A DNA stretch of 64,000 nucleotides from Lingula anatina. Its lineage: Eukaryota > Animalia > Brachiopoda. Location of the stretch: contig CM120640.1 of the NCBI GenBank assembly GCA_051362555.1, forward strand, positions 3,658,001 through 3,722,000, written 5' to 3'. The notes beneath the pieces were generated by a model. It saw nothing but the letters and a program-made list of their open reading frames with translations. It ran no database searches and was not told where the DNA came from. Shown here in pieces: positions 7,001 through 61,826 of the stretch (position 1 is its first letter; every line of letters begins with the position of its first letter). The translations under genes were made by a program, and so were the position numbers.

Positions 7001-7900
7001 GTTAAAATGGAGTTTTCACTCAGGTATACTGATGTTATTATATGTACAGGATAGAGGAACTACAAATATGCTTTTGGGAAGCACAGAATATAAACATGAA
7101 ATAAGAATATCTAAGGTGCCAAAAAAAACAAAAACAAAAAACCTCACACATTGTCTCTTTAAAGGCACATGTATCAATATAACTAACAGAATATACTTCT
7201 TCAAGTTTTGACACCTTGACATGACTTTTTATCAAATAACTTCCAATCAACTTACCTTGAAAAAAATATCACTCCTCACAAAGGCCAAATCTTTAGGCAA
7301 CTGCCTTATACTGCTGATTGACTTGGCTTCACAATACACGCTGTTCTCAAAATTGAGGCGATACTTTACATGTAGCCCCCTGGGAGAGGTCTTTTTTTCT
7401 GATATTACTTTAACATCAACATCCAAACCGTAAAATTTCTTTCCTATTGCTTGAAGCTGACCGACCACATAGTGAGTGAAACCAAACCTCTTGGTCACAT
7501 AGTTTAATACACACCCTTTTTTATCAATCTGTTCCACACAGAACGAAGGTGTGATGAGTTTTGGGAATCCAAACCTGAGCATCTCGTGTAAGTTATCAAT
7601 GCCATGTAAGAAATCACAGTAGTATCTTCCTGAGACACGGACAATCTTGTCGTAACCATAATGGCTGAAAAATTTTACAAAGCACTTGCCAAAGTATTGC
7701 AAATATTCATCCACTGTTCCGTCTTTCAGAACTTCTGAACATGCACTGGCAATGTTATGCATGCTGTTGTCAGGGTAAACTGTGTGCGTTGAGAAGACTT
7801 CGTTTTTCATCCCAGCATGCTCCAAGACCATCATCCATTTGTCTTCCCCATAGCTGGACTGAATGAAATACTGAATGCTTTCCAGTAGCATACCATACAT
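343..7900 (-). CDS. Atypical soluble guanylate cyclase, beta-like subunit (Gyc-88E/Gyc-89D-like): H-NOX + PAS/HNOBA + coiled coil + start of cyclase domain; 3' end lies beyond the left edge of the window
   Basis: Phase-consistent GT-AG coding exons: 7900-7256, 5720-5565, 4514-4333, 4000-3871, 888-742, 489-343. Motifs seen: N-terminal MYGMLLES, proximal His105 (IDNLH), YxTxR, FPFSLVF, LKGQM..YLCSP, LLYSMIPKSIAVRL, FDSVTIGFSY. An in-frame TAA lies just upstream of ATG 7900, and the ATG-containing exon begins at an acceptor at 7923. Confidence 0.95.
1048..1082. repeat. (TTTA)n microsatellite
   Basis: Direct reading. Confidence 0.9.
1616..1686. repeat. (TG)n / (TGCA)-interrupted microsatellite
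   Basis: Direct reading. Confidence 0.85.
5220..5476. mobile_element. Fold-back MITE, PIF/Harbinger (Tourist)-type, in cyclase intron
   Basis: Near-perfect 257-bp palindrome, GGCTTCGTTCACATGCAATGTCTATTTTCTAAATTCT... / ...AGAATTTAGAAAATAGACATTGCATGTGAACGAAGCC, flanked by TAA TSDs (5217-5219, 5477-5479). Confidence 0.85.
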
Positions 7901-10772
7901 GTCGTTGGTTTGTTAGAACCTATCTGAAACATTGAATAATGTGAGTTTAAGGACAATTATTATATGTTACAAATATCATCAAATATTTACAAGAAAACGA
8001 TGCATATTTCATTTATCTGAAATGATTAATAACATGTAATTATGTGTACTTTACAACTTTTAAGTTCAGTGGCCTTATCAAACCACTTTTTGTAATTCGC
8101 TACAAATATAAGGAAGTTAATTACAAGAAATACAGTAATGGAACTGTGATGGTGTTCATTTAAACAGATTATAAACTTTTTAATTAAGAATCCTTTATGT
8201 CTATGGATCACATTTGCTTTAATTTTTCAATTACCAAGCCCTCTGAAACTATTGCAAATTGACTTCTGCCCATTGGGATCTATGTGCAGCATATTCTGCG
8301 TGTGGCATGAACATCAATGTTATCAAAAAAAGCATTACCAGGAGTTTACAGGCACCGAGAATGAGTTTACATCCTATTATGTAACTTCATCAATTTTTTT
8401 TTCCTGGAGTGATTTTGGACACTTGGGTTGAACATACTTGATAATGGCTTATTGATGTTACGGGTTAAAGAACCTCTGGAGACAAAGTTTGTCAGTGTTA
8501 TTAACCTTGGTGTATCAATGAGAAAGAAAACACACTCCTGAGACTTCAGTTACATCTACCAACCCATTAACTTCTTGATTTCATTTTATCTTATAACATT
8601 CAGTGTGGAAGAAACTATTACCCTTCAAAATGATGTCACAATCAATCAAGTTTCAATTTTTCTGTAAAATACATCTGAGAGATAGGGGATGCCAAGTATA
8701 CTCTAGAGTAGAGTGAAAGCAATACATCTATGGCACTGGTACAAATACTCAATTTACAGTAATGAATGTATGCATTTTTGCCTCCATTATACGCATGTGT
8801 TTCATTCAAAACTTTTAGTGCAAGAAAAGAGGAAAGATCGAGTAAACTTTAATTGTTTTTCTAGATATAATTGATTGGTCCCCAAGGAGCAATTCTAAGT
8901 GGACCATACATAAGTGATGATGGATCTTGATGCTAACAAGGAGTAATATATCTGACAATTATTGCTTTTAAGCAATGAAATACAAATATCAGCTTTAAAA
9001 TGAGACCAGATCATAAATTACAAAGTCTCTAAGCCTACACACTGGAGATCAAGTCTGATGTGTTCATCTAAATTGAAGAGATATAATCAGAGGTGCAGCA
9101 TAATACCCGTTTTACACTATCCTGAAAATAACCAATTTTTAACACCATGCAATGTAATGAGTAATTAGAAACACTTGTGCAAATAGTTTCTAGAGTGTTG
9201 TGCAGGTGCTTTATTTCTTTTTTAAGTCTTAGTTTAATCAAAAAGCTTTTCCCTCCTCCTCTAGTACATTTTCATCTTTTCATGACAAATTAAAACAAAT
9301 AAACTTAACTTCATAACTCCTTTTAAACAAGATTGGTAAACAGGAAAATGACAAAATGTTTTACAAAGATGAACTGCTACTCCAGTGTTTCACTGTTGTT
9401 TGAGAAAATGAAAGGTTACATTGGAAAATAAAATCAAATAGCTACTAGACTATCAGTTACAGTTCTTGTCTATTTTTCAAGTAGTTTTCTCACTCACTCA
9501 GACATAATATTCACAAGAACACGCGTATGTGCATCATTCATACACGCATTTGTACAAGCACACATGCACAAGCATGATAATTGAAAGGAGAGTATATCCT
9601 TATTTACAAAAACAAATTATTTCTAAGTATGAAAGAGAATTAACTTCATTTTACTCAGAAAAGAAAAACTGCCTAGAAACTTACTGAATTTTAGTAGCAA
9701 ACAATTGGAAAAACTAAAACACACCTGTAATCTTATTCCTATGTAAATTACTTAGAGCACAAGCACCAATGTACTTTATCCTTTGAACAGTGCAAATGAC
9801 GCTGTCACAGTTGATCATCTGTGACAAAACTGCCATTTCAAAATGTAGTACAAAATGTAGTACATATAAACCAATCCCAGAGAATCTCCACATCTTTTAG
9901 TCTTTGCTGATTAGAGATGAAAGTTCCATCTTAGACAGAATTCCCCTTAGTTGACACACAATCAGATATAATAATAAATGAAGCCAAGAGAATTAACTAG
10001 GAGAATATTGCACTTTTCGTATATTTTTCTGATTGGGCATAAAAAGGAAAAAAATCAATGAAATAATTCTGTCAAATGAAAATAAAAGATACAAAATTGC
10101 TTTCTCTATCAATCTGAAAAGGAGATTGGCATAGGGAAATTTATACCATATGAAAAATTTCCAGCATTCCAAAGAAATCCTTGAATAATATGATCAAGGA
10201 ATAAATGTATCATAACATTTTGTTAAATTTCACATAATTCACATTTATCAAGATGTAGATATAAATGCTAAAAATAGCACATTTCTATTTCAATTCTATT
10301 TTTAATTTTTGACACATTAAAAACCTGTTTCAATATCAGAAAGGCTACAAATCCAACAAAATTTTTTTTCAGTTTTTAATACACCACGAGTATTTTTATA
10401 GTCTATGTGAACAAAGTTCAGCTTATTAACCTTAGAGAAAGAATAAGACTGGGTAATAAGCTGACTCACCTGAACTGATTGGAAGATAGCTGGTTAAGTG
10501 AATTGTAAAAATTAGCTGCTAAACACTAGTTTATGGTGAACACATTCCCCAGCAAGTCTGTCACTGTTGATAAAGAAATACCCATGTCAGGCCTGTAATC
10601 AGCAATTTTAAAAGGGGGTGTGTGCTCATTTTCTGAGAACATTGACCTTCTTACCGTTATCACCTTAGTTGATCTAACTTGTAAAATGACCTAGAACCTA
10701 GCATTAAACGAGGCTGTCGCCACTGTATAATGTCCTATGAGAACATGAAAAAGTATCGCGAATGCTGTCTAA

Positions 10773-35292: not shown

Positions 35293-36486
35293 CATATAAA
35301 CACAGACTGACATAAATATCATAGCAAGAACTTAAGCTTATTGCAAAATAAACTTTTTCTACTGAATTTCTAAAAATAATTTGAACACCATAGAAATAAA
35401 ATGCAATTTACTTACGTCAACCTTGCATTCTTTGATCTTGCATCCCTTGAAAGTTTTCTGAGAATACTGCACTTAAATGCAAAATATAGATTGACAGCTT
35501 CTGTTTTTTCTGGTAAGACTTATCTTCCACACTAACATGCCAAAAAGAGTTTTGGCTTGTAGTCATTGTGCAGCACATCAGTTCCTTTTATTATATTTAC
35601 CTCAACATCCACGAGGCCTACAAGATGATTCAGCACCTTTGATCCATAGTAATTGTTGCTTTTCTGTCTTAACATAAGATGCAATTTGCAAGATTTCGCT
35701 TAAACATTTGCTAAAATTCAAATAATTCATGTTTTTCTTATTATTATTTATTAATTTATTTGTGTGTGTGTGTGTGTCAATGTTCATATTTCAATAAGAA
35801 AACAGCAATACAATGGAAATCAAGTAAAACTGTTAGTAAGACTGTAATGAGAAATAAAAACCACATTCTCATGGATCTGCCACAGATGCCACTGCAGACA
35901 ACTATCTACTTTGATCAATTTTTTACAAAATTGAGTTCCTTCTGCATTTTGTCTGCTTCAGTAGAAAAATACACATTCTGTAAGATTTGAAAAGAATTTT
36001 TCCTTAAATAAATCTCTCTGCTTAACACTTACACAGGGATTATGATTGATAAGCGTGAAGTCTGCATATTCCATACCAGAATTCAGTAGCTATAATTTGT
36101 AAAAAATTTTCTTTTAAGACCCTCTAGATGTAGTAGAATGGAAACAATACAAAAATATATTGACAAAGTTCAAATATAATGGTTTATTCATATGTTTGTA
36201 TGTTTACTTTATTGTCCATATATCAACATTTTTCTAAAAAGTACTTCTCAAAGTTATATATATTGTTTCAAACTCACATTTTGTTGATAGGTGCATAAAT
36301 AACTGATAAAGCTTCCATAAATATCTACTGTATAATCATTCTTCATGATAAATATACAAATGAAAAGCCACAAAAAAATCAAACATTACTCCCCCCCCCC
36401 CCAAAAAAAAAATATATATATATCCCTCACAGAAATAAGTTAGTGCTTTGTGAAATGACAGTCCCATTTTTCTTCTTTTTGTCAAG

Positions 36487-39400
36487 TTAATCTTTGTCCA
36501 GCATTTCTTCTAAGGCCTGTAAATACAATATCTCAGTATAAATTCTATGACATTTAAACCTGCTAATTCACTCGGAAAAATCATGAAATGAGATCAACTT
36601 TGCTTTTTAATTTCAAGTGCTAACATTTTTCTTATTGTACAAAATACTTGTGAACAAATATAGTGCTAACCTGCAGTGTGTCTTGCCTATCTGCAGTGAC
36701 CGAGATATTGGGTGGATTGCTCTGTCTTATTATTTCACAAAACCTGCATGACAAAATAGTAAATCCTTTATCTCAAATATTAATAACAGTGTCTATATCT
36801 CTAAAACTTTCTTCATCATAATCATACAAAGGTACTATTGAAATCTACATTATGCTTTGCAATAAAAACATTATATTAAGTCAATTACAATTTAGTTTTT
36901 AAAATGTTCTCGTTCAACAGCACCAAGCTCATCAAAGTGTATTAATGGTAGCAGCAACAGATTTATTTCAAACAATTTTCCGGACTGTAAATTGGCTGTG
37001 AAACAGGTGGATAAAATTCTCCTGTACTGTAAAGCTAACAATGAGAATTTGACATAAAATAAGCTGCCAGTATTCTTTTTATTTTACTTTATTTAAAATG
37101 TTCAGAAGAAATGAGACAAAAAAACTTCGCACCAAAAACAGTGTTTTTCATTTAACTTAAACTTTTTTCATCTATATGTTCCCCAAAAACAAAAAATTGA
37201 TTAAAATGAGCAAAAAGTCTACACAGCATGCAATTTTTATTGATATCCTTCATTTTTGTCAGATCAATAGGTTTCACCCAGTCTCTGTCTCAATTAGTGT
37301 AAAAGCATTCACCTGTTTGATCTTACAAATGAAGCTTCTTACATCATATCTCTCTTGGGAAAACAAAGTGAAAAGAAAGAAGATAGAGAATGATAAAATA
37401 TTAATTGTTATGCTCATGACATCAAGGGACTTACTTTTCAATTTGTTCATCTGTCTTGTGAATATCTTTGTTCACTTGAGAAAGCTCCTACAAATTGACA
37501 AAAAATTTCAAAGACTTGATAATAAAAAAGAAAATCATATCTGATGCATAAAAAATACTATGGCACTGCATTTGTGAACTCTGTCATTTATTCTAAAGCT
37601 TTTGAGTGAAAATAATAACAAATTCCAGAAGTATCATTTTAATAATACTTCAGGCCTTAGACATAAAAGTGAAATCCCAATGAAACTTTATATTTTTATG
37701 TACAGACACAGATGTGTCTGTACATATAGCCATCACCTGCGTCTGTCGTCGCCGTTGCCGTTGCCGTTGCCGTTGCCGTGCACTTTTACCGTAAACACGA
37801 TAAGTGGAAAACAGTTTTACGTTTTGACTTGAAACTTACAGAACTGATGAATATTCATAATATTCAGGTCAAGTTCGAAAATCAGCATGATCGGGCCATT
37901 TTCAGGGAAGTTATGCTGTTTTTTCACTTTTTTCAGCATATATGCAACACCGTAAACACGATAAGTGGAAAACCGTTTTACCTTTTGGTTTGAAACTTAC
38001 AGAACTGATGAATTTGTATAATACGCAGGTCAAGTTTGAAAATCAGCATGATCGGGTCATTTTTAGGGAAGTTTTGCTTTTTTTTCACTTTTTTCAGCAT
38101 ATATGCAACACCGTAAACACAATAAGTGGAAAACCGTTTTACCTTTTGGTTTGAAACTTACAGAACTGATGAATTTGTATAATACGCAGGTCAAGTTCGA
38201 AAATCAGCATGATCGGGTCATTTTTAGGGAAGTTTTGCTTTTTTTTCACTTTTTTCAGCATATATGCAACACCGTAAACACGATAAGTGGAAAACCGTTT
38301 TACCTTTTGGTTTTAAACTTACAGAACTGATGAATTTGTATAATACGCAGGTCAAGTTCGAAAATCAGCATGATCGAGTCATTTTTAGGGAAGTTTTGCT
38401 TTTTTTTCACTTTTTTCAGCATATATGCAACACCGTAAACACGATAAGTGGAAAACCGTTTTACCTTTTGGTTTGAAACTTACAGAACTGATGAATATTT
38501 ATAATACGCAGGTCAAGTTCGAAAATCAGCATGATTGGGTCATTTTTAGGGAAGTTATGCTTTTTTTTCACATTTTCTCTGATTCAATTCTTAGGCATGT
38601 TAATAGTCTCATTATTGAACTAATAAGATATGTAAAAGTGTTTTTTTGACATTTCCTACATCTTTACAACATTGTTAGTTGATTATGTAAAAATGATGGT
38701 AAACTTGTTATCGTGTATTGTGTAATGAAGTGTCAAAAATGGAAATAAACACATATCATTGCAGTTTGTCAGATTCGATCATCCACTATGTTCAGAATCT
38801 CATAATGGAGGAAATTGGACATTTAATACTGTTCTGTTGATATTTTTCCCATCTCATCAATTTTATTAGTTGGTCATATAAAAATGGCAGTAAACTGTTA
38901 ATTTTGTTTTATGTTAAAAAAGTGTTAAAAATGGAAATAAACCCATTTCAGAAAAGTGCTGTCTTGTTTACATTTTGGCATTTTCAAGATGTGACTTTGA
39001 AGTTCCATGGGCCTGAAGACCTTTGCTAGTCACATTTTCTGAATATCCATGATACTAATATTTTATTATTAAAAATTGATGGTGATTATGCTGTTAAACA
39101 TTATGTAATATTGCATCAAAATTTGAAGAAACCCCTAATTTGGGCACTGCTCCCATGATGACCATTTAAGGAAAATCATGTCACTTACTGTTCTCAAACT
39201 TACAGGAAAGAAACATGGGACTAAAATACAGCTTCAGTAGGCAATGCAGTCTGTTTGGTAATTTTTTCTGGCAGTTAAACAGTTTTTTGTGAAAATTTAA
39301 TTTTTCACATATTGGCATTTTCAAGGTGTGACTTTGAAGTTCTATGATCCTGAAGACCTTTGCTTGTAACATTTTCTGAATGTCCATGTTACTAATATTC

Positions 39401-42400
39401 TATTATTAAAAATTGATGGTCATTATGCTGTTAAACATTATGTAATGTTACATTAAAATTTGAAGAAACCCCTATTTTGGGCACTGCTCCCATGATGAGC
39501 ACTTAAGGAAAATCATGTCACTTACTGTTCTCAAACTTACAGGAAAGAAACATGGGACTAAAATACAGCTTCAGTAGGAAATGTAGTCTGTTTGGTAAAT
39601 TTTTCTGGCAGTTAAACAGTTTTTTGTGAAAATTTAATTTTTCACATATTGGCATTTTCAAGGTGTGACTTAGAACCTGAAGACCCATATATATATATAT
39701 ATATATATATATATCAAAAAAGATTAAAAGTTTGAATGGCAGCATCATTGGAATTATATTTACCTCTGCCAAGGAGGTTATGTTTTCACCCCTGTTTGTC
39801 TGTCATCAACATAACTCAAAAAGTTACGGACCGATTTTGATGAAATTTTCAGGAACTGTCAGAAGTGGGCAAGGAGGACAATGATTAGTTTTTGGTGGTG
39901 GTCCGGATCAATAATCAATCAATAATAATCAACAATTGCTGTCTTGGCAGAGGTCTGCGCTCTTGGAGTGCTTTTCTAGTTTTGTTATGTTTTCCTTTTT
40001 AATTTTTTCTCAAACACTGGCATTTGTGACTTTTAACTCTCATCTGCCTGAGGCTCTGCACATTTTCTATATTTCCACGTAAGCAGTTGTATTGTTTTTT
40101 ATGTCTTTATACATTATGTAATATTATTTTATGCACTGTCATCATTTTTCAAATATTGAGACTTTCATCATGAGAATTTGAACTCTCATGGTCCTGAAAC
40201 TGTAATCTTATTGAAGGGGTGGATTGAGACCATCTTCTGGGTCTTCCGGAAGACGGTCAGGTTATTAAGTTTATATTGACTGGTATCTATTTTTTTCTGT
40301 TGGAAGACCATCAAAATGGAGGATGGATCAACACAGATACTTTGGAATACTGTCAGAAAATATCTCAGGGTCCGCTCCTGTTATTGACCATGTTACCTGT
40401 TGTGCATGATTAAAATTCAGTGTTGACTGACAGTGCTATTATGAGCATTATTTATTATTGCATCAAAATTGACAAAATGACCTTTTTTATATCTTTATTT
40501 TCTGTTTTTTGTCTGTACATTTGACAGCTTTGCTGCCTTGTTTTTAGATATTTGTAACTTTGATACTTTTATTGGCTCTATATATTTAGTTACTTTCGCT
40601 GACATACTTACAAAAGTGTAATATTTTACTAAATGAGACAAAAGCAATAACAGCAAGTTGGAAAAATTAAAGGAAAAAACCTTTACCAGCTGGAGGTCTA
40701 GTTTAACAGTATCTAGGTTTATTAGAGTTGCTTCAATTTCCTTCAACCTCGTATCTTCCCCGTTTACAGGAGTCTATAAAAAAAAATAATCAGAAAAGCA
40801 ATGGTAAATCACATCTTTGTATCCTGGGTTTCAATTTTTCTAAGGAAGACAACTTCCACAAATTAATGTCCATGGGCTCATTCCCAGTGAACTATCATTC
40901 TACACACCTTGATCCAAATCTGTGGGGACTCTTGCTGAATGCAATCAGATAAGCACGCCTCTTCTTTTTTCCAACAGACTTGTAAAATTACCAGCTTTTC
41001 TGCATTCTACTCGGTGCCAAGAGGCAGCATTTTAATCTGAAAATTTTACATTCAGCGAGACTCTTTGCAGAGTTGGATCAATCTATGGAAAAGGATAGTT
41101 TCATCAGGAATGAGCCCTTACATACCTGAAATGTTCTCAATGACAATATAGTGCTTCACTGCTGATAGGATAAGAATATCTTTAACTTCTCAAAATTGCA
41201 GTCAAAATATTTGCAGTCTAAATGAAACAGAAGGAACAGGTTCAAATAAAACTTGACAGCATGATGGGACTGTATGGGGTTTTCATTAGTTCCTGATTGA
41301 GGGTCACAGTGTCATTTTCATGTCATGATCCCCCGTAACATAGGCATCTTCAGTACTGATTATAAAATGTTGTTCCCAGATAAATGTTCTGGAAAATCTC
41401 AGTTAAGTTAAAATGTTAGGTTAAAAAAGTGATGGAAGTTAATTATATATGTGGTGGCAAAAAGTATAAGTTCCAAACATTTCTGTGCACATTCCATTTT
41501 GAAATCTATTGAATGAATTTCTTAAGTTTCAAATCTGGTCTAACGTTTCTATTGTAGCATAATTTTGCTTCTGGCAAAACAGCTGGGTCATTTTATTCAA
41601 ATCCAGATCTTTTGCAAAAGCAATGAAAACTACAAAAATATTGAAACATTTAGATCATCTTATCCCTAGTTATTGTATTTCTTCATTTGCCAAAAACTGT
41701 ACTACTGTAAGTCTATCAAGTTGGGGATAAATGGAAACAGTTTAACCATGGAAAAATACCTTTTATAACTGATGTTAATATATATTCTGTAAATGACACT
41801 ATTAATAATACCTCATCTTCTCCATACTGTTGGTAGATGTTTTTCTTTGTTATACTGTGCAATTTCTTGTGGTGTCGACGAAAGGCTTTGTAAAACTGCC
41901 TTAAACTGTCATCATGTCTAAAATGTGAAGCACTATAGTAAGCAACCCAGTCAAAAAAAGAGTACAAGCTTATCAAGCACTATATTTCTATGATATTTCA
42001 TATCGTTAATCATATATTACTATGACATTTCTAATCAATTCATAATACAAGCCTCTGGTTACAAAACTTATCATTTATCATATGTAATTCACATACAGTA
42101 CTTAAATAAATAAGTCATGGATAAAACACATGTGCAAAGAAGCTGTATCTGCATAAGGGCATTTTTACAATCCTGGGCACTTTTCAGATTTTCCCACATA
42201 TTGCTAATTAACAAATTACATACATATGATCAAAGAATTCTTTTATCACTATGTTAGAGAATGGTGTAAGTGAAGATAAACACTGAAAATAAAAACCAAA
42301 TATCACCACCGAGTCCAAAGTTATGCTAAAGCAAAGCCCGAAAAATGACCAAAAATTTTTCCCGTTTTAGTCATATGAAATAAAAAGCAATCTGAAATAA

Positions 42401-45400
42401 ATTAAAACAGTGTTTGACATTGCATTTTTTTGGATTATAAAACACTCAGTAGTATGGTGGAAGCAAAAAAGCTTAAATATTAACAGGAGAGAGGTGTATC
42501 CTAGAAAAAAGGTCTTTTAATGGCATGCTGGTATTTCCGTTAAACGAAATGTCCATTCCGAAACAAAAATAAATTACTTTCAGAAAATATGTCATAAAAC
42601 ATACAGTATAATTAACCATCCTAATCATTATTTGGATGTATTGGTATTGTTTGTATCAAATAATGAAATCTGTGTGATGATTCTGGAGCTTGTCATGGAG
42701 TGCAAAATAACCCTACCATATTTTTCCGTTAAATTTGTCCATTCCGAAACATTGGGTTTCTCTTACATAAAAAGAACATGTTGACACCTAGCCTGTAACA
42801 ATATGTATTTCTCTAAAGCCCAGGACATGTGATATTTATTTTTATATAAGAAAACCCCAGTGCACAGAAACCCATTTAACTGTGGCCTTTTTTGAGATGC
42901 TTGTTAAAAATTGTCCATTCCGAAACAAAGTACCTTTACATTGCCAATGTTATAAATAGAGAAAATTCTGTCTTTAATGCTGTATGTTTCACTTGACATG
43001 AGCAAATTACTGTAAAAGCATCATGCATATGACATAAAAATAATAGAAAAACATTTCTTCAATGGCAACTTTTAAAATTTCTATATATATCCTCAACAAA
43101 AAAATTCATTTTTGCGAGACAGCATCTTTTCTTTGGATCTACTAGAACTTCCATTGCATATTTTCCCCAAGTTCATGTATTTCAAAGTTAAATTAACAAT
43201 TAATTGAAGAGATTATATCAGTATAAATAGAAATATAGGCAATTTGGATGCTTTGTATCGGAAAGGACATTTTTTAACACATTGTCTAAAACACTTGTTT
43301 ACTCTTTGGTCTGCTCATCTATTTATTATTCATGAGGAAGAGGATGATGGGAAGCACATCAAATTTATGTAGAATATAATTTTGAATAATACAGCTTACC
43401 TTACTTTAAATATTGCTTACTTATGATGTACATAAAAGTATACGAAAATAGTTATGAGGCTACAAATGTTAAAGTTGCGAGAGTCAATTCACTGGCACAG
43501 TTTACAGAGGCGCTTGCAGGCAGACACAGGTTATAATTAACTTCCTGTGATTATTTATCATGATGTATATATATATATACATGATGTATATATATCATGA
43601 TGTATGTATATATATATGTATATATACCATTTAAGCAATTTCGTAAATGTTAAATAAATGTCCATTCCGAAACACAGGACATGCCTAAAAGGACATATTA
43701 AAAAATTTAATTACTAAATTTAAACCTGACCTTGTCAAATAATATTTTATACAGCTATGAGCTGTAACAAAAGGAAGTAGAATAGGGTATAATGGAGTGT
43801 AGAAGACTCTATTTTATGTCATGATCAAATACTAATGGAGTAACATTTCAAAAAAGAATCAAAAACTATCCAAAATGACCAATTAATGTAATAAAAACAG
43901 TTCAGTTTTAATATAGTTAACTCATATTTTGTCCAATGATTGCTTCATCTGTACCTTGTAAACCAACATACTATGAGATCTTAAGGCAATTTCATAAATG
44001 TTAAATAAATGTCCATTCCGAAACAAGGACATGTCTAAAAGGACATATTTTTAAACATGTCTTTACTGTTGGTAAATCTGACATTGTCAAATAATATTTT
44101 ATACAGCTATGAACTGTAACAAAAGAAACTGGAATAAGGTATAATGGTGTAAAGAATAACTGGAATATATCTCAGAATCAATATTTAATAAAATAAAATT
44201 CCAGTAATGAATTGCTAGTACAGAATAGACAAAACAAGCACAAAATGTAATAAAAAGACTTCAATTTTAGTTCAGCTTCCACCTATTTTGCCCAGTTATT
44301 CATAGACTTTACCTAAAACTTATAAACTCAAATACTACAATATATTAAAATAATATCATAAATGTTTTAAAAAATGTCCTTTCCGAAACAGGGATGTTTC
44401 GGAAAGGACATTTATTTTAACATGACACTGCAATTAGCACACATGTCCGTGCAAAATAACATTTTACACAATCATGAAGCATAACATAAAGAACTAATGC
44501 AAGGTAAAGTGAAGTACAGAAGTCCTCAGAATATCTCAGAATCAAAAAATGGAGATCAATACCTTAAATTATCATAAAAGTCGCACACTTCAAGGTTTAG
44601 CTTATGAAAATTAAAAAAATGATTTTCAAAATTCAAATAATCATATCTTTATACATACACAAGGTTTTATCTCGGGATTGTCATTTCTTATACCCTTCAG
44701 GTCTATACTTTCAAGAAAAGTACAAATTTCAACACAATAATGACTTCTATTTTTGACCCTTGGTGGGAAAAAAAGGAGCCCAGGATTGTAAAAATGCCCA
44801 TAATATCATTAACTCTTTGCTCTTAAAGAAAAAAAGGAAAAATTATAATTTTGAAAGATAATTATAAGAAACATTAAAATTATATAAAATAATTTACAAC
44901 TTTATGCCTTAAAAAATTGGCAAACAAAATGTCACTGAAACATGAATGGTTTATTCAAACTCAGATACATGGCTTTCTGTGTACCATATTTCAAGTTCTG
45001 AGCCTTTTAGGTGTGGAACCTACTAGTTAGTTACTCAGTAAAATTGTGTCTTGCTCTTTTAAGAATGCATTAGCATGAAATTTCATGTTTTGGCAATGCT
45101 ATATGATTTCTGATATGTCCAATTTGGTGGTTGCTCTAGCCGACTGTCATTTTACAGTTATGTGCAAATCTATCTTTCATCCATGATGTGATACCAGATA
45201 ACAAATTACAAAATAGGGGTCTTCGTGATATTAACCTGTGAAACTGTGTAAAAAATAAAGATTATAGGACAAAATTTGTTTGAAAAACTAAACATATACA
45301 ATTAATTTCACCTCAGCTTTTCTGTAAAATAACTTTGGAATTCTTGAAACGTCATATCCTTGCCCATGTTATCAGCTAACAGAAATTCCTCCAAAATTGT

Positions 45401-45409
45401 TGCCGCCAT
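36487..45409 (-). CDS. Small helical/coiled-coil protein (148 aa) resembling kinetochore CCAN subunit Nkp2/Cnl2
   Basis: Six GT-AG exons: 45409-45312, 41917-41812, 40773-40687, 37487-37435, 36743-36671, 36516-36487 (98+106+87+53+73+30=447 nt, all phases match). Start context AACATGGCGG. Protein: MAATILEEFLLADNMGKDMTFQEFQSYFTEKLRHDDSLRQFYKAFRRHHKKLHSITKKNIYQQYGEDETPVNGEDTRLKEIEATLINLDTVKLDLQLELSQVNKDIHKTDEQIEKFCEIIRQSNPPNISVTADRQDTLQALEEMLDKD*. AATAAA signals on the minus strand at 36208-36213 and 36183-36188. The gene model is well supported; the family call rests on recalled sequence patterns. Confidence 0.8.
37788..38575 (+). repeat. 161-bp tandem repeat array, ~4.9 near-identical copies
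   Basis: Unit start ACCGTAAACACGATAAGTGGAAAAC recurs at 37788, 37949, 38110, 38271 and 38432. Confidence 0.95.
38975..39685 (+). repeat. 337-bp tandem repeat, ~2.1 copies
   Basis: TGGCATTTTCAAG.TGTGACTT recurs at ~38976, ~39313 and ~39650; TCACTTACTGTTCTCAAAC occurs at 39181 and 39518. Confidence 0.9.
39757..39982 (+). mobile_element. Short HINE/DINE-like element nested in the larger element
   Basis: TTTACCTCTGCCAAGGAGGTTATGTTTTCA...(TGTC)... CTTGGCAGAGGTCTGCGCTCTTGGAGTGCTTTTCTAGTTT: 5' subTIR plus internal IR, 3' subTIR, terminal hairpin and TT flanks. Confidence 0.8.
40214..40380. mobile_element. MITE family B copy nested in the HINE-like element
   Basis: Inverted homolog of 35125-35292, with a perfect TTATTG duplication on both flanks (40208-40213, 40381-40386). 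Confidence 0.75.
40874..41117. mobile_element. MITE family A copy in intron 2 of the Nkp2-like gene
   Basis: GGGCTCATTCCCAGTGAACTATCATTCTAC ... GATAGTTTCATCAGGAATGAGCCC; the core is reverse-oriented relative to the 17412 copy. Confidence 0.75.
42157..44799. mobile_element. 2.64-kb non-autonomous DNA transposon, Sola2-like, in intron 1 of the Nkp2-like gene
   Basis: 22-bp perfect TIR GGGCATTTTTACAATCCTGGGC and a 4-bp TSD ATAA (42153-42156, 44800-44803). No transposase ORF. The motif TGTCCATTCCGAAAC recurs internally, and there are ~350-bp internal tandem units. Confidence 0.8.
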
Positions 45410-45651
45410 GTTGAGCTTTCTGTACATTTTCAACAAAAGAGCTCCAATGTTTACAAAATTGCAAGACGGATCGATAAAGATTGACATTAAGAAAGAAGGA
45501 GTAGAAGTTCCTACATCAAAGTTTCAAAGCTCCAGTAGTTTGGAAACATAGACTGTTGCGTATAGACTGTCATATATTTTTACTTGTTGCAAAGAGAAAA
45601 ACTAACGATTTTTTAAATATTTTTTTCTTGGTTGACCCATTTAGTGAAAAA
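45410..45651. promoter_or_regulatory. Compact bidirectional promoter shared by the Nkp2-like gene and PGM3
   Basis: Two divergent ATGs (45409 minus, 45652 plus) are separated by only 242 bp. A YY1-like GCCGCCATGTTG motif overlaps the minus-strand start. Confidence 0.7.
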
Positions 45652-48600
45652 ATGGCAGGAACCGGCTATTTTGCTGCAGTGAAAATTGCTGCTGAAAAGC
45701 ACCCTCGTCTCCGCGAAAAGGTCATTCAATATGGTACAGCAGGATTCCGAACCAAGTAAGAAACAGCAAGATTATTGTTGATGTACTTGTATTGTTTTTC
45801 CATAAAAAAATTAGTAGATTGTGCACACCGTTACCTGTGGATTTCACCTACGATAAGTTTTATTGCACCGACATTGCTGACCATGCGCATGTCACATCTT
45901 GCAAATTGCATGATGCCAGTCATAAATATCCCATGCTTGTTTGGTGGGCGGTTTCAAGTGTTTAAGAGACTGTTTTATTACATTTACCATTTTGAACTTT
46001 GATTGTAATCCGTGGATTAAAGAATTAAATATATCTCTCCGTTGGGTCTGGGTGGGGTGTGGGGGACGCTAATTAATAATTTAATGTGTTCGATCTCACA
46101 GCTCACCCAGTGGTGATTTATAAGTAACACATCATGATCGACCAGGGCTGTCACCATCATTTAATATGATGAGTTAAAATAAGAATGTCTTCAGTATTTA
46201 TATCTGTTAGTTAAAATGAAAACAGCGCTTCTCAATATGATATAAAAATACATGTGTATGGTGTCATTGCAGAGGTGAAGAACTTGACCATGTCATGTTC
46301 AGAATGGGAGTGTTGGCTGCACTTCGGTCACAACTTAAAAGAGGTAATGATGCATGTCACATATATGTTTTCTAATGAAACAGAAAACTTCTTTGCCTAA
46401 GTTCAGGCATGATAAAAGCACCAGTTTCTTATTTTCATAGCTGTGAAAAATTTTTTACTCATATTAGCATGATGTAACTTATAATTTAATAAGCTTCATG
46501 TCTTTTTTTTTTATTTTCTGATGGACAGAAAACTAGAGAAATAAGTGATTATCTTATGATCAAATTCTTCCTGTGAGCCTGCTGGAGTGTAGTCACCTAG
46601 AGTCAATTAACAATGACACGTCTTATTTTGTTGTTTTAATGAAATATGATTGATCTGTTTTTGATAAATTATTGCAGCTGTAATTGGAGCTATGATCACA
46701 GCATCACATAACCCTGAGGAGGACAATGGAGTCAAGCTGGTGGATCCTCTTGGAGAGATGCTGGAAGCTGCCTGGGAGAAACTGGCCACCAAACTGGCTA
46801 ATGTCAGGTTAGGAATATCCCTTTTTCTGTATCCCTTTTTTTTTCATAATCACTGGACCTGTTAGACCGGTGCGACACTTCTTCATTCTATTTCTGACTT
46901 GATACTTACTTTTAAATCTGATTCATTTATTTTCAGAATGAAAAATGCATCCTGTGACATCAGAATTATTTTAATAATCTTAAAAAAGATATAAGTCAGC
47001 ATATCATCAAAAATTCTTTAATGATATTAAATAAAACTGAATTTTAATACAAGATTATTGTGCATCATTCTATGCATATTTTAGTGATTCTGACCTCCCA
47101 GCTGTTCTGTCAGACATTGTCTCCAGTTGTGGCATAGACACAGCTGTCCCTGCACAGGTGTTCCTAGCCAGGGATACCAGGTCAGTGATATATGGCCCAT
47201 TACTGAGATAAAATGTTACAAAAAACTGCTACAAAGTATCAAAGGCTGCTCAAAGACACATATAAAAGAATGACAAATAACATAACTCGAGCTATTTTGG
47301 CCACTGTTATAACAGTTTTATTAGAAAGAAGATTTTATTTTATTAGATAAGCTTATCCTATGAAATTAGATCTTATCTTTCAAGTGTGTTCTTTAATAAT
47401 TTCCATTGTATCTCAGGCCCAGTAGTCCATCCCTTGCACAAGCCATAATTGATGGAGTCCAAGCAATAAAAGGAGAGGTCAAGGACTATGGTCAGTTTTG
47501 TCTACTAGTGTCCAACTACCTTGTTACTCAAATTGTCATTTTGATATTTTATGGCCAGAGTTTTGGATACTTAAAGATAAGATTGTGTCTGCTAGTACTT
47601 GTAAGCAGTCCTAATTTCCTTTGCTCAACCATGATGTTTTAATAGAATAGTATGTAAAGTCCAAAAATTTGTACGGGTCATTATGTTGTTTAAGGGTGAC
47701 AGTTGGAGACGATCATTTTGTTTTATTGTTTTGAATACATTTCCAGGTATATTAACCACTCCGCAGCTTCACTTCATGGTTAGATGTGAAAATTCCCAAG
47801 GTCAATATGGGAGCCAAACTGAAAATGGCTACTACACAAAACTATCTAATGCTTTTTTGAAACTCAGGGGTCATGTAAGTAACTAATTAGTGATTTTTTA
47901 AATTAAAGACTTTCATAATGATAAATAGTCATAATTTCAACATTTGAAAAACATTTGATAATATGCATGCAATATATTTTTAAAATATCATTTGTGTGAT
48001 AATTAAGTGGGTGGAAAAATCAATATTGGTTTATTTGTAGGAACACCAAAATGAGCGTTATCACCCACAACTCAGGTTAGATGGAGCTAATGGAGTAGGT
48101 GCCTTAAAGATAAAAGAAATGCAGAAGCATTTGAACAACTCTTTGCAAATAGAATTGTTCAATGATGGGAGTAGCGGCAAGTTGAATTATATGGTAAATT
48201 TGTGTGTTGTTGAGAAACTGATCAAAACTTACTAGGTAGAAGAACATGAAGCATTATCTTAAAAAGTTAGGTCAGGATGCTGTCATATAAGCTGGTTTAT
48301 TTACTCACAGTTATGATGTCATCATGTTTTCATTTTCAAGTGAATTATGCTAAAATTTTCATTATTTTAATTTTTCCAGTGTGGCGCAGATTACGTCAAA
48401 GTCCAGCAGACAGCTCCTAATGGTGAGTGGGGTACAGGATTATCAAACAATCAAAATTATTAAAATATAACCATCTGAATTGCTGTATATTTAGTAAAAG
48501 CTGAAAAAATTGATGGATACAGCATGGTGATATTTGTGTCTTTACCTGTAGTTTGTATATCCAGGTATGCCCAAGGAAGCCAGGGTCAGGTGTGCATCCT

Positions 48601-57595: not shown

Positions 57596-60500
57596 ATGAG
57601 CATAGCTCAGCTTCTACAGGCAGCAGAATATCTGGAGAGAAGGGAAAGAGGTGAGATACTCTAATCAGAGTTAGAAATAGTGTAATTTTTGCAAACGTTG
57701 CCACGTTGACAAGCTGTCAAAAATTCCCCCTATAGACGCTGAATAGGGTTATCAAGAAATTTTTATTTTGGAATTCCAGAGGCAGAACATGGCTATGCCA
57801 CGACGATGCCAATGCCAGATGACTATATGAAAAGGAAATCCAAACCGAAGAAATCTCAGGGAAATAGGTAAATAAGAAATGATGAGGTTACGAATATAAA
57901 CAACAATCAGCTGACAGCGCCCGCCATTTTATTTTGGCGGATTCCGGTCACGATCAACTGCCTTAGAGCATTCTCATGCATCCTGGATGGAACAAAATTT
58001 TCAAGGACATACACATTTGATATACTGAACTTTGTGTTAATGAAGTAAATAGCTTTAGTAATGGACTTTTGTTGCAGTATTTTGCAAGTGATATGCCAGG
58101 ATATGCGAAATCGATTGCCGCCATCTTGAAGTTTTATTATGGAATGCTTTTCCATTTTTGACATCTAAATTTCAGTTAATGCTGGAAGATCTATCTTAAA
58201 ATTTTAAGAAATTATTGGATTAGTCTTCTTTTGTTCACAACTAAAACATCGTGAGAATATCATCAGTTTGGGTTAATAACCACCTAATCAATATTAAAAG
58301 CCATATCGGAACTGGATTAACTGTTGTTATCGTTTTGTTATGATGTAGTGTGGATTTTTTGTGCCGCCCTAACACCATGTCACGTAAATATCTCTCTCTT
58401 TAAATTTTTGATATTGAAATAAGTCATAACTATGGGTTGATTAAGATTTGCAGTCTGTTTTTATTTCACCTAATATTTACAAGTTTAATATAATGTCACT
58501 CTTACTTCTTTTATTCTTTTATCAAATCAAATTTTGTTTCATAAATTGATTAAAATTAACTATTTTTCTTTAACCAATGAAACATAAGTATTCCACAAAA
58601 TGTGTTAGGAATTTTTACAGGTTGGAAAATAATGAGAATGTTTTTAAAAAACTCTTATAGTTTCTATCTTTATTAACTTAATTGAAGTTTGAAGACATCG
58701 TTTGAGGGATAAAATTTTATTACTCATTAACTTCTGTAACCCAAACTTATTGGTCATTTCGGTGAACTATCAAGTAAATTAGTTTTATTTAAGGTACTGC
58801 ACATAAATTTTTAATGACATGATGTGTTTCATTGAAATAATGATACCAGTTCTATTAATATTCAGGTATTTTCTATTTGTCACAGAGGCAGTGCTGGTGA
58901 CACATAAAAGCATGCTTTCAGTGTAACTGAACAGCTATAGGAAATTGACAGCTTATTGGACTGTTGCCTGAAAATAGGGTGCATATCCTAGATTAAGTAA
59001 ACAACAAATCCTTAGCTTTAAGTTGAGTCACCCAACATTGCCTCGGAGTGTTAAGTAAATAGGTAGTGTTTATATTTGTTATACATATTTTTTATACCTA
59101 TATATATGTATGCTTGTTAAGATTATTGAGATTTTACTTTCAGGTCTACGCATAATGAGCTGGAAAAGAACAGGTGAGAGAGTTTTCTAATATTGATTCT
59201 TCTAATAATATGTTATGCATTATTGATGTGACAGTTCCAGCAAGTTACAATATTTCAGAAAAAATTTTTTTTACTGCCTTAGTTAACCCTACTTAAAAAA
59301 TGGCTTTAAACCTGGATCAAGTTATGATTCAGAATGGATTATTTCATAACAAAAGTCTTTTTTTACCCCCCCTCCCCCCTCTTTGCCATTTGATTGTGTT
59401 ATTTTGAAACGTGGGATACATTTACTAAATTGTAAGTTATAGTTAGGCCATCATTGTGTATCAGTGGCGGGTTTCTGGTTCCCACATTGAAAATGGCATT
59501 ATTACGTAGGATGTGGTGGAGAAAGAGGTGATTCAAAGGTATTACAAGGACATGGGTGTTCTGCATAATGCATGTACCATGTAAGGTCAAATTGAGGTCA
59601 TAAAGACTGGGCATTTTAGTGTGCACAACATAAAAGGTACTAGAAGAAATGTACTGAGGGGTTGAATTTTTACTTGAATTTTTTTTTTCTGCCTTAATAA
59701 GAATGTTTATGTATCTTTATATATCTATTATATACAGAAATATTTAAAGAAAAAATTGAAATGCATAATTTTTAAGTAAAATGAACTTTACAGAGATAGT
59801 CTAGAAATGGTTACAATATTTTTGTGGTTGAATAGTTAAAAATTTTCAAAATGGAAACTGATCTATGTGATTGAAAAAGAGACCATATTGGTAATTACAA
59901 ACTATAACTTATTATGATTTGATGTCTTGTCCTAATTTGCTCATTGAAGAAAATTTTTTTTGAAGGCGGGCACACTTGCGTCAGAGCCTGGAATTGTTAA
60001 AAGAAATAGTCCCGGTGGGACCAGAAGCTACTAGACACACAACACTAGGACTGTTGACCAAATCCAAAGCCTTTATCAAGGTATGCTGCTTTGTTGGTGC
60101 AGAGAAGCCTTTAATAGTGTACACAACGTGAAATAAGTAAACATCTGTGTTTGTTTCATTGATTTATCTGATTGTTTACAATGGAAGAAAGTGGCACCAT
60201 TTGGAGATATGCATTAGAGACAGGTGTATAAGCAAGTTGCAAATTTTTGCTTTATTCTTGGCTCAGGCACTGGAAGAAAAGGAGAGGAAGTATAACATAC
60301 AAAAGGAAAATATGCTCAGGGAACAGCGTCACCTAAAAAGGAGACTAGAACTTTTAACTAAAGGGTCCTGGAGGACACGAAAAAATTCAGAAAGAAGTAT
60401 CAGTGAAAGTAGTACTTCAACAGTCTCCAATGTGTCAAATGCCTCAGACTCTTGTGAATCAGGTAAGCCAAATGTGCTCATCACAAAAAATTGTTTTTTA

Positions 60501-61826
60501 GTTGTGTTAATTTTTTTACCAAAACAGGTAGAGAAAATGTCAGTTTTACATTTTTAGTCACAGTGTTGTTCAATAAGGCTGTAGAAGTTCTGACAGTGTA
60601 GCTTAGTTTATTGGGACTTACCAGTACAAGATTAATAGCTTATTCTTTGGCCTTCTTTTTGTAATGAAGTTTGAGTAGTTGACTGACCTCTTTTCTATTA
60701 CTGTTGAAGTCTAAAATTAGAATTGGGTATCACATTACCGCTGTTCCTTTTGTGCTTGTGTGTTTAAGTTGACTGCAAGTAGTGCATAGTTCAGTAGTTT
60801 ATCAAAACCCTCAGGGGGGCTTTTGAGTACAATCATGAAATATGGACAAAGCAGGAGACAAATAATTCCATGTCATTGCTTATCTGACCATTTGCACCTG
60901 GAGGCTCTCCAATATTATAGAGCTGTTAGATTGACAAACCTGTCAAAGGTCAGGCCACCTGTAATTAACTGAAGTCTTGAGGTGATAATTATACTTACCT
61001 GAGGACATTTGGCCTGGTGACAATTAAAAGCATGGGTCAGGAAATGAATATTAATCTATAAAGGCTTGGAGCCAGGTGATGTGCACATCAAGTATGGAAT
61101 ACTAATAACTTTGTTTGGAGTGAAGCCCTGTTCCTTTTTATCATGGCAAATAGAAAAAATTTAAGCTTTTAGAGGGGACTGTAGCTCGAGAAATCTGTAA
61201 TCTTGGTCTCAGTCATTGAATGACCATTCACTTCCAAAATTACGGGGGGAGGGGGGGGGAATACGTGTGGAAGGGGTTGCAGTCTTTAGTGTAGTCTTAA
61301 GTACTAGTTGCAACACGAGTCATCCACTGTATGTGACAAACAAGAGCCTTATTATATCAAGGTGCAGCCCTTGCGTATTGCATACAGTGGACGACGAGTA
61401 TTTGTAACTGAGTTATCCCACGGCTGGCACTTCGAACAATAGGATGAACACACCTAAGCCTGTGAAAATACAGTTGAGTGTGCAAGTAAAATACAAGTGC
61501 AATTATCCTTTTGTTCAGAGTGCTGGGTGTAGGATAATTGTTTTTTATTCGAACTTTTGTGGTTTCAGTATGTGGAGCTGAGGTTTCCTGCAATAAGAGT
61601 ACATACCTGTTACCATGGGAGTTTTGCGCCAAAAAATATCTTATTAAGATTATGAAATGCACACTTCATTACTAGCATTGAATGTTTGTTACATTTATTC
61701 TTTTCAGATGAGGTCGACATCCTGGGCTATAATAGTTCTAATAGTGACACAGATGACCACAGCAGCATTGGGAGTGGCAGTGATGGCTGTACTGTGAACT
61801 CTAGCATCCACAACCTGGCTGTATGA
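57596..61826 (+). CDS. MXI1: MAX dimerization protein / MXI1-like (Mad/Mxd family) bHLH-ZIP transcriptional repressor
   Basis: Exons 57596-57650, 57780-57867, 59144-59173, 59966-60080, 60267-60462, 61708-61826. Contains the Sin3-interaction domain [25 protein letters not shown], basic region [19 protein letters not shown] segment [10 protein letters not shown], leucine zipper [12 protein letters not shown] and the C-terminal DEVDI motif. Probably the single invertebrate co-ortholog of MXD1/MXI1/MXD3/MXD4. Confidence 0.93.

Follow-up and report, generated by a model that had tools for sequence, protein, structure and literature searches.

The brachiopod Lingula anatina carries a gene for a member of the Nkp2/Cnl2 family of kinetochore proteins in a stretch of 64,000 nucleotides that was analysed as a whole (the window; assembly GCA_051362555.1, contig CM120640.1, positions 3,658,001 to 3,722,000 of the forward strand, with all positions below counted from its first letter). 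The six-exon minus-strand gene is real, spliced, and transcribed, and the assignment of its protein to the Nkp2/Cnl2 family by sequence comparison is sound. By analogy with yeast, bracing of the inner kinetochore is the likely task of the protein, a reading to which we give a probability of about 0.75. It is the first protostome Nkp2 found here, while an animal Nkp2 is in itself not new; what is added here is the protostome case, an echinoderm case from the brittle star Amphiura filiformis, and the read support for the gene model.

Gene structure and transcription

A sequence-only reading of the window had proposed that six small exons are spliced in phase into an open reading frame (ORF) of 148 amino acids (aa), and this model holds. 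The exons, which lie within positions 36487-45409 (Table 1), give a joined frame of 447 nucleotides (nt), corresponding to 148 codons and a stop codon, and all five introns (3394, 1038, 3199, 691, and 154 nt in order) start with GT and end with AG. None of the 16 ORFs of at least 100 aa in the window shows any exon of the gene, and no second copy was found in the 64 kb by tblastn. The same reading had called the gene hidden, which is not the case because the gene is already annotated: exon 1 together with eight upstream codons, used as a query, returned one protein, 'uncharacterized protein LOC106166310 [Lingula anatina]', of 154 aa, which is present at NCBI, UniRef, and EukProt and carries a precomputed match to Pfam family PF09447 (Cnl2_NKP2). 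The NCBI model and the six-exon model agree on all five junctions, whose phases are 2, 0, 0, 2, and 0 at codons 39, 75, 104, 121, and 146 of LOC106166310.

The start codon of the gene may be either the ATG at 45409 or the in-frame ATG at 45427. The proposed start at 45409 does have a good context (A at -3 and G at +4), better than that at 45427, and three relatives of similar length starting with M-A-A align with it; on the other side, the NCBI model uses the ATG located six codons upstream. At the other end of the gene, the AATAAA signals that had been predicted are present 273 and 298 nt downstream of the stop codon, and RNA depth is found in the bin 36213-36483 and is zero in the bin 35942-36212.

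Four RNA runs from the same species (X1, X2, X4, and X7 of nine listed, with tissues given as codes) were aligned to positions 35400-43500, a stretch that takes in junctions 2-5 and ends within intron 1, short of exon 1 and the start of transcription. All four junctions within this stretch were recovered at the exact positions predicted, and junction 1 is backed by the agreement with the NCBI model. The numbers of reads in X1, X4, X7, and X2 were 26, 3, 0, and 43 for junction 2; 63, 3, 0, and 85 for junction 3; 58, 1, 0, and 44 for junction 4; and 75, 0, 1, and 76 for junction 5. The junction reads have CT..AC ends on the plus strand and first mates on the plus strand only, so that, under the usual stranded protocol, they derive from minus-strand RNA.

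The protein spliced from the window is identical to LOC106166310 at 145 of 148 residues. At the three differing codons (108, 119, and 129), all in the C-terminal half, the RNA reads carry the LOC106166310 alleles, and at least two other exonic differences among those listed are silent. Moreover, between 36459 and 41851 (exons 2-5 and the 3' untranslated region), nearly all X1 and X2 reads depart from the window at six or more exon positions and at several small deletions in the untranslated region. Because the reads and the NCBI protein share the three differing residues, the window comes either from a haplotype slightly unlike that of the annotated animal or from a very close sibling of it.

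Assignment to the Nkp2/Cnl2 family

The homology to Nkp2/Cnl2 claimed by the sequence-only reading was confirmed by independent sequence tests, namely Pfam, the relatives retrieved, a profile search of the Protein Data Bank (PDB), and the ESM Atlas. LOC106166310 matches PF09447 with 28.4 bits against a cut-off of 27, a narrow pass (E 1.8e-6), and the match covers residues 10-69 and profile positions 3-63 of 65. This part spans junction 1 at codon 39 and is identical in LOC106166310 and the window splice. The next Pfam family reaches E 0.003 and stays under its own cut-off. Of 24,736 Pfam models, Cnl2_NKP2 is the only one that exon 1 matches by itself (E 0.023, 15.2 bits, profile positions 2-30 of 65), and exons 2, 3, and 5, searched singly against Pfam, gave no Cnl2_NKP2 match.

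A phmmer search over 1.84 billion representatives yielded four relatives at E <=0.001, and all four pass PF09447 with 41-55 bits. Three of them are named, from Saccoglossus kowalevskii, Amphiura filiformis (41.3 bits), and Balamuthia mandrillaris, and the fourth shows 37% identity to the Saccoglossus protein and 33% to that of Amphiura. The best relative is Saccoglossus LOC102801487 (phmmer E 3e-8, 27% identity, PF09447 54 bits), which has 154 aa like the Lingula protein; Saccoglossus is a deuterostome whereas Lingula is a protostome, and both proteins are known here from sequence. A profile of the five sequences, which include no named fungal member, was compared with 177,635 PDB sequences, and Saccharomyces cerevisiae Nkp2 took ranks 1 and 2 (E 3.8e-6 and 7.1e-6), with the next protein at E 0.012. 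Profile positions 4-130 align to positions 4-133 of the 153-residue yeast Nkp2 chain, and this alignment shows the colinearity with yeast Nkp2 that the sequence-only reading had proposed. In the ESM Atlas, the three best feature matches are likewise Cnl2_NKP2 clusters (0.92, 0.91, and 0.87).

The signal was also divided by region: the head contributes 65.8 bits and the coiled tail 17.3, and 4000 shuffles reached a maximum of 12.6, none near the head score, a control that locates the signal and does not measure independence, as the relatives had been picked as matches of LOC106166310. Two further searches were less informative. A word-based homolog search, which is insensitive at this divergence, recovered only LOC106166310 itself among 16 candidates, and its alignment-based version recovered only four of its own five members among 1433 candidates.

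Predicted structure

AlphaFold2 with the five sequences places helices at residues 3-16, 27-31, 36-39, 42-70, 80-128, and 139-153, with a mean predicted local distance difference test score (pLDDT) of 69.5 and a predicted template modelling score (pTM) of 0.36; the single-sequence prediction reached a pLDDT of 54.6 and a pTM of 0.26. This moderate-confidence model suggests a short helical head (residues 3-70), a long helix (80-128), and a terminal helix (139-153). Such an arrangement agrees with the Mis12-type layout, in which about 150 aa form a helical head and a long coiled-coil helix and a long disordered N-terminal tail is missing. Searches with the model were of limited use: Foldseek returned no match at E <=0.001, and the lists of the VIA fold searches were filled with generic long helices (best Z 6.0), Nkp2 not being listed among them. 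The first row of the ESM Atlas structure search is a Cnl2_NKP2 cluster with a TM score of 0.40, which is below the bar for naming.

Proposed role at the inner kinetochore

The N-terminal parts of yeast Nkp1 and Nkp2 make up a four-helix head, and a four-chain coil is built from their C-terminal parts together with Okp1 (CENP-Q) and Ame1 (CENP-U); both proteins stabilise the complex, are dispensable for viability, and have been lost in several yeasts (PMC6407923; PMC5709738). The Lingula protein resembles S. cerevisiae Nkp2 (PDB 10dq_Z, 6nuw, and 6qld_Z; 153 aa) and Schizosaccharomyces pombe Cnl2, both of PF09447, in size and in the layout of head and long helix, which is predicted in Lingula, although S. 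cerevisiae Nkp2 is too far away for a single-sequence match. The partners, location, and non-essential stabilising role of yeast Nkp2 are experimental, whereas the Lingula protein is known from its gene, transcript, and sequence.

Because a head, a long helix, and a terminal helix are all predicted for the Lingula protein, which has the yeast length, the same bracing role can be proposed. Nkp1 would be the partner of its N-terminal helical head, and, by analogy with yeast, such an Nkp1-Nkp2 heterodimer would form a four-helix head. The long helix towards the C-terminus would enter the coiled coil of CENP-Q and CENP-U, and the C-terminal parts of Nkp1, Nkp2, CENP-Q, and CENP-U would together build a four-chain coil, the 'NANO' tetramer. 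As in yeast, the role would be stabilising and not essential. The sequence-only reading had further suggested that the lineage keeps a whole Nkp1-Nkp2-CENP-U/Q module, and this is plausible on the basis of co-occurrence in other species: in 102 of the 109 rows of Table S1 of Plowman et al. (2019), from which the counts given here are taken, CENP-Q and CENP-U accompany Nkp2 in 16 of 16 positive species and Nkp1 does so in 13 of 16 (PMC6823300).

Several observations weigh against a yeast-like role or the assignment underlying it. The Lingula protein lies only 1.4 bits above the Pfam cut-off. The single-sequence phmmer search of the PDB missed yeast Nkp2, and its best matches were unrelated EF-hand proteins at E 0.08, which were weak and dismissed as chance. 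The three named relatives, obtained by searches that are insensitive at such distances, include no mollusc, annelid, or other protostome. The dispensability of yeast Nkp1/2 and their loss in several yeasts mean that the role may be minor or changed. Finally, three of the 16 Nkp2-positive species (Thecamonas, Physarum, and Acanthamoeba) have no detected Nkp1 in the counted rows (PMC6823300), and therefore an Nkp1 partner cannot be assumed for Lingula.

Alternative explanations

The last of these points bears on a first alternative, namely that the gene is a true Nkp2 ortholog which acts without an Nkp1 partner, is restricted to some cell types such as the germ line, or has taken on a different function. 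It would fit with the greater distance of the Lingula protein from the Pfam model than that of its relatives (28 versus 41-55 bits) and with the uneven expression, since X1 and X2 hold 26-85 reads per junction and X4 and X7 only 0-3 at similar numbers of records (9.5-12.4 million). Such differences between libraries would, however, be expected for any gene of cell division; Nkp1 accompanies Nkp2 in both positive animals and in the choanoflagellate of the counted rows (PMC6823300), and the Lingula protein, with its predicted head, long helix, and terminal helix, still has the ancestral length of about 150 aa. We regard a changed or restricted role as unlikely, although it is the main rival reading. 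The Mis12 complex of the outer kinetochore contains a paralog, Nnf1/PMF1, which occurs in nearly all animals and has common ancestry with Nkp2; a confusion with it deserves attention because the profiles of Nnf1 and Nkp2 are each other's best hits (PMC6601020) and an Nnf1 cluster appears at rank 9 of the ESM Atlas matches (0.78). Nnf1/PMF1, an ancient paralog, follows the same head-and-coil plan (PMC6601020) and belongs to the outer rather than the inner kinetochore. Closeness to one or the other was judged by the ranking of matches, and here the Nkp2 clusters score well above Nnf1 in the ESM Atlas, Pfam gives no Nnf1 (PF03980) row for LOC106166310 (E up to 10) or for the four relatives (E up to 1), and Nkp2 comes first in the PDB search, with no Nnf1/PMF1 chain in the best 60 of 277 matches. 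The paralog is accordingly very improbable.

Horizontal transfer from a fungus or protist, or contamination, could account for the patchy presence in animals (2 of 20, PMC6823300) and for the amoeba Balamuthia being the source of one of the four relatives. We find this hardly credible in view of the five spliceosomal introns, with repeats abundant in Lingula's own RNA, and of the hemichordate and echinoderm proteins among the best, full-length relatives; in addition, a cnidarian and a choanoflagellate are scored positive for the family, in keeping with vertical descent and loss (PMC6823300). The tail, which weakly matches many unrelated coiled coils, speaks for a chance resemblance of some generic coiled-coil protein. 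This reading is largely refuted by the concentration of the match in the non-coiled head, where the score far exceeds those of tail and shuffles and where exon 1 alone finds no model other than Cnl2_NKP2; next to no weight is left for it. An Nkp2 ortholog bracing the inner kinetochore is the reading we prefer.

Distribution in animals and the origin of CENP-R

In the survey of Plowman et al. (2019), Nkp1 and Nkp2 are scored present in two of 20 animals, Saccoglossus and Nematostella, and also in the choanoflagellate Salpingoeca, and scored absent in five vertebrates, Ciona, Branchiostoma, and Strongylocentrotus, as well as in all seven protostomes (four insects, two nematodes, and Schistosoma); brachiopods, molluscs, and annelids are missing from its species set (PMC6823300). 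The caveat of the sequence-only reading that surveys may list animal homologs is thereby justified, and we infer that LOC102801487 is the Saccoglossus protein scored there as Nkp2-positive. Tromer et al. (2019) placed Nkp2 in opisthokonts and Amoebozoa as a paralog of Nnf1 (PMC6601020). Later kinetochore surveys using EukProt, which includes the Lingula protein, may already list a Lingula Nkp2. Searches of open-access main texts brought up neither a study of Nkp2 in brachiopods or other protostomes nor experimental work on an Nkp2 of any animal, and PMC12606422, as far as its available part goes, contributes Candida data only.

Animal orthologs are otherwise found only as cells of that 2019 supplementary table (PMC6823300), and a 2022 review still presents Nkp1/2 as a yeast addition and CENP-R as their vertebrate functional analogue (PMC9252888). 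CENP-R is listed for human, mouse, and Xenopus only by van Hooff et al. (2017, PMC5579357), and in the human structure of the constitutive centromere-associated network its two helices sit roughly where the yeast Nkp1/Nkp2 helices do (PMC9235857). The part of the pillar that CENP-R covers is limited to the head. No CENP-R row was returned by Pfam for any of the five proteins, none appeared in the best 60 PDB matches, and a very remote kinship is possible. Pfam presumably holds a CENP-R model.

The brachiopod copy places Nkp2 in protostomes, and Amphiura adds the echinoderms, in which Strongylocentrotus was scored absent (PMC6823300). Because both a brachiopod and a brittle star have copies, retention in the bilaterian ancestor followed by repeated loss is the simple reading; judging from the distribution, the gene would descend from the animal ancestor by vertical inheritance, with several losses, as in vertebrates, insects, and nematodes, and CENP-R would fill part of the site in tetrapods. 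We lean, with some reserve, towards a wider proposal in which the bilaterian ancestor had a four-subunit NANO pillar of the yeast kind (Nkp1-CENP-U-Nkp2-CENP-Q) that brachiopods, hemichordates, brittle stars, and sea anemones keep, the human CENP-R design is derived, and CENP-R replaced, or descends from, the C-terminal helices of Nkp1/Nkp2. If this is true, such animals would allow the first test of a NANO pillar on an animal centromere. The known picture of the Nkp2 family is unchanged by these results, the mechanism being that of yeast by analogy, and they provide animal sequences with which the origin of CENP-R can be addressed.

Features of the gene and its surroundings

Table 1. Parts of the Lingula anatina Nkp2-family gene in the window, in the order of transcription where possible
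Feature	Position	Strand	Remarks
Upstream extension, 6 in-frame codons	45410-45427	-	from ATG at 45427, used by NCBI model
Exon 1, coding part, 98 nt	45312-45409	-	first half of Nkp2 head; identical to NCBI model LOC106166310
Intron 1, 3394 nt, phase 2	41918-45311	-	GT-AG; same junction in LOC106166310
Exon 2, 106 nt	41812-41917	-	second half of Nkp2 head; read junction 40773/41812
Exon 3, 87 nt	40687-40773	-	linker and beginning of long predicted helix; reads
Exon 4, 53 nt	37435-37487	-	long predicted helix; reads
Exon 5, 73 nt	36671-36743	-	predicted end of long helix, loop, and beginning of terminal helix; reads
Exon 6, coding part and stop, 30 nt	36487-36516	-	predicted terminal helix; read junction 36515/36670
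3' untranslated region	36183-36486	-	AATAAA at 36213 and 36188; RNA depth; 3' end approximate

The introns had been described as filled with transposons, which is right for introns 1 and 3 and wrong for introns 4 and 5, where there are no such repeats. Intron 1 holds an element of about 2.65 kb (42157-44799) with 31-nt inverted arms (42154-42184 and 44772-44802) that are 90% complementary and ATAA on both sides; degenerate copies recur inside it about every 355 nt, it has no ORF of at least 100 aa, and it is probably, by its sequence features, a non-autonomous DNA transposon whose insertion duplicated a 4-bp target. Intron 3 contains two tandem arrays, one of 161 nt repeated 4.9 times (37788-38576) and one of 337 nt repeated 2.1 times (38970-39675). 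The array region attracts RNA reads in large numbers that stem from other loci, sharp loose ends are seen at 37692 and 40542, and its repeats can be regarded as abundant transcribed repeat families because of these reads.

A plus-strand gene starts at 45652, head-to-head with the Nkp2 gene, with exons at 45652-45755 and 46273-46343 as judged by eye. Since only 242 nt separate the two ATGs, a shared two-way promoter is suggested. We take this neighbour to resemble phosphoacetylglucosamine mutase (PGM3), an unconfirmed likeness, its short exons having no database match. Farther away, a plus-strand ORF at 60141-60557 has a leucine-zipper-like stretch and a serine-rich tail and no Pfam match; it presumably recalls the Mad/Mxi Max-binding proteins, which is likewise unconfirmed. 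On the minus strand, the large exon at positions 7247-7912 belongs to a protein with a haem-NO-binding (HNOB) match at E 7e-49, which is probably a soluble guanylate cyclase subunit.

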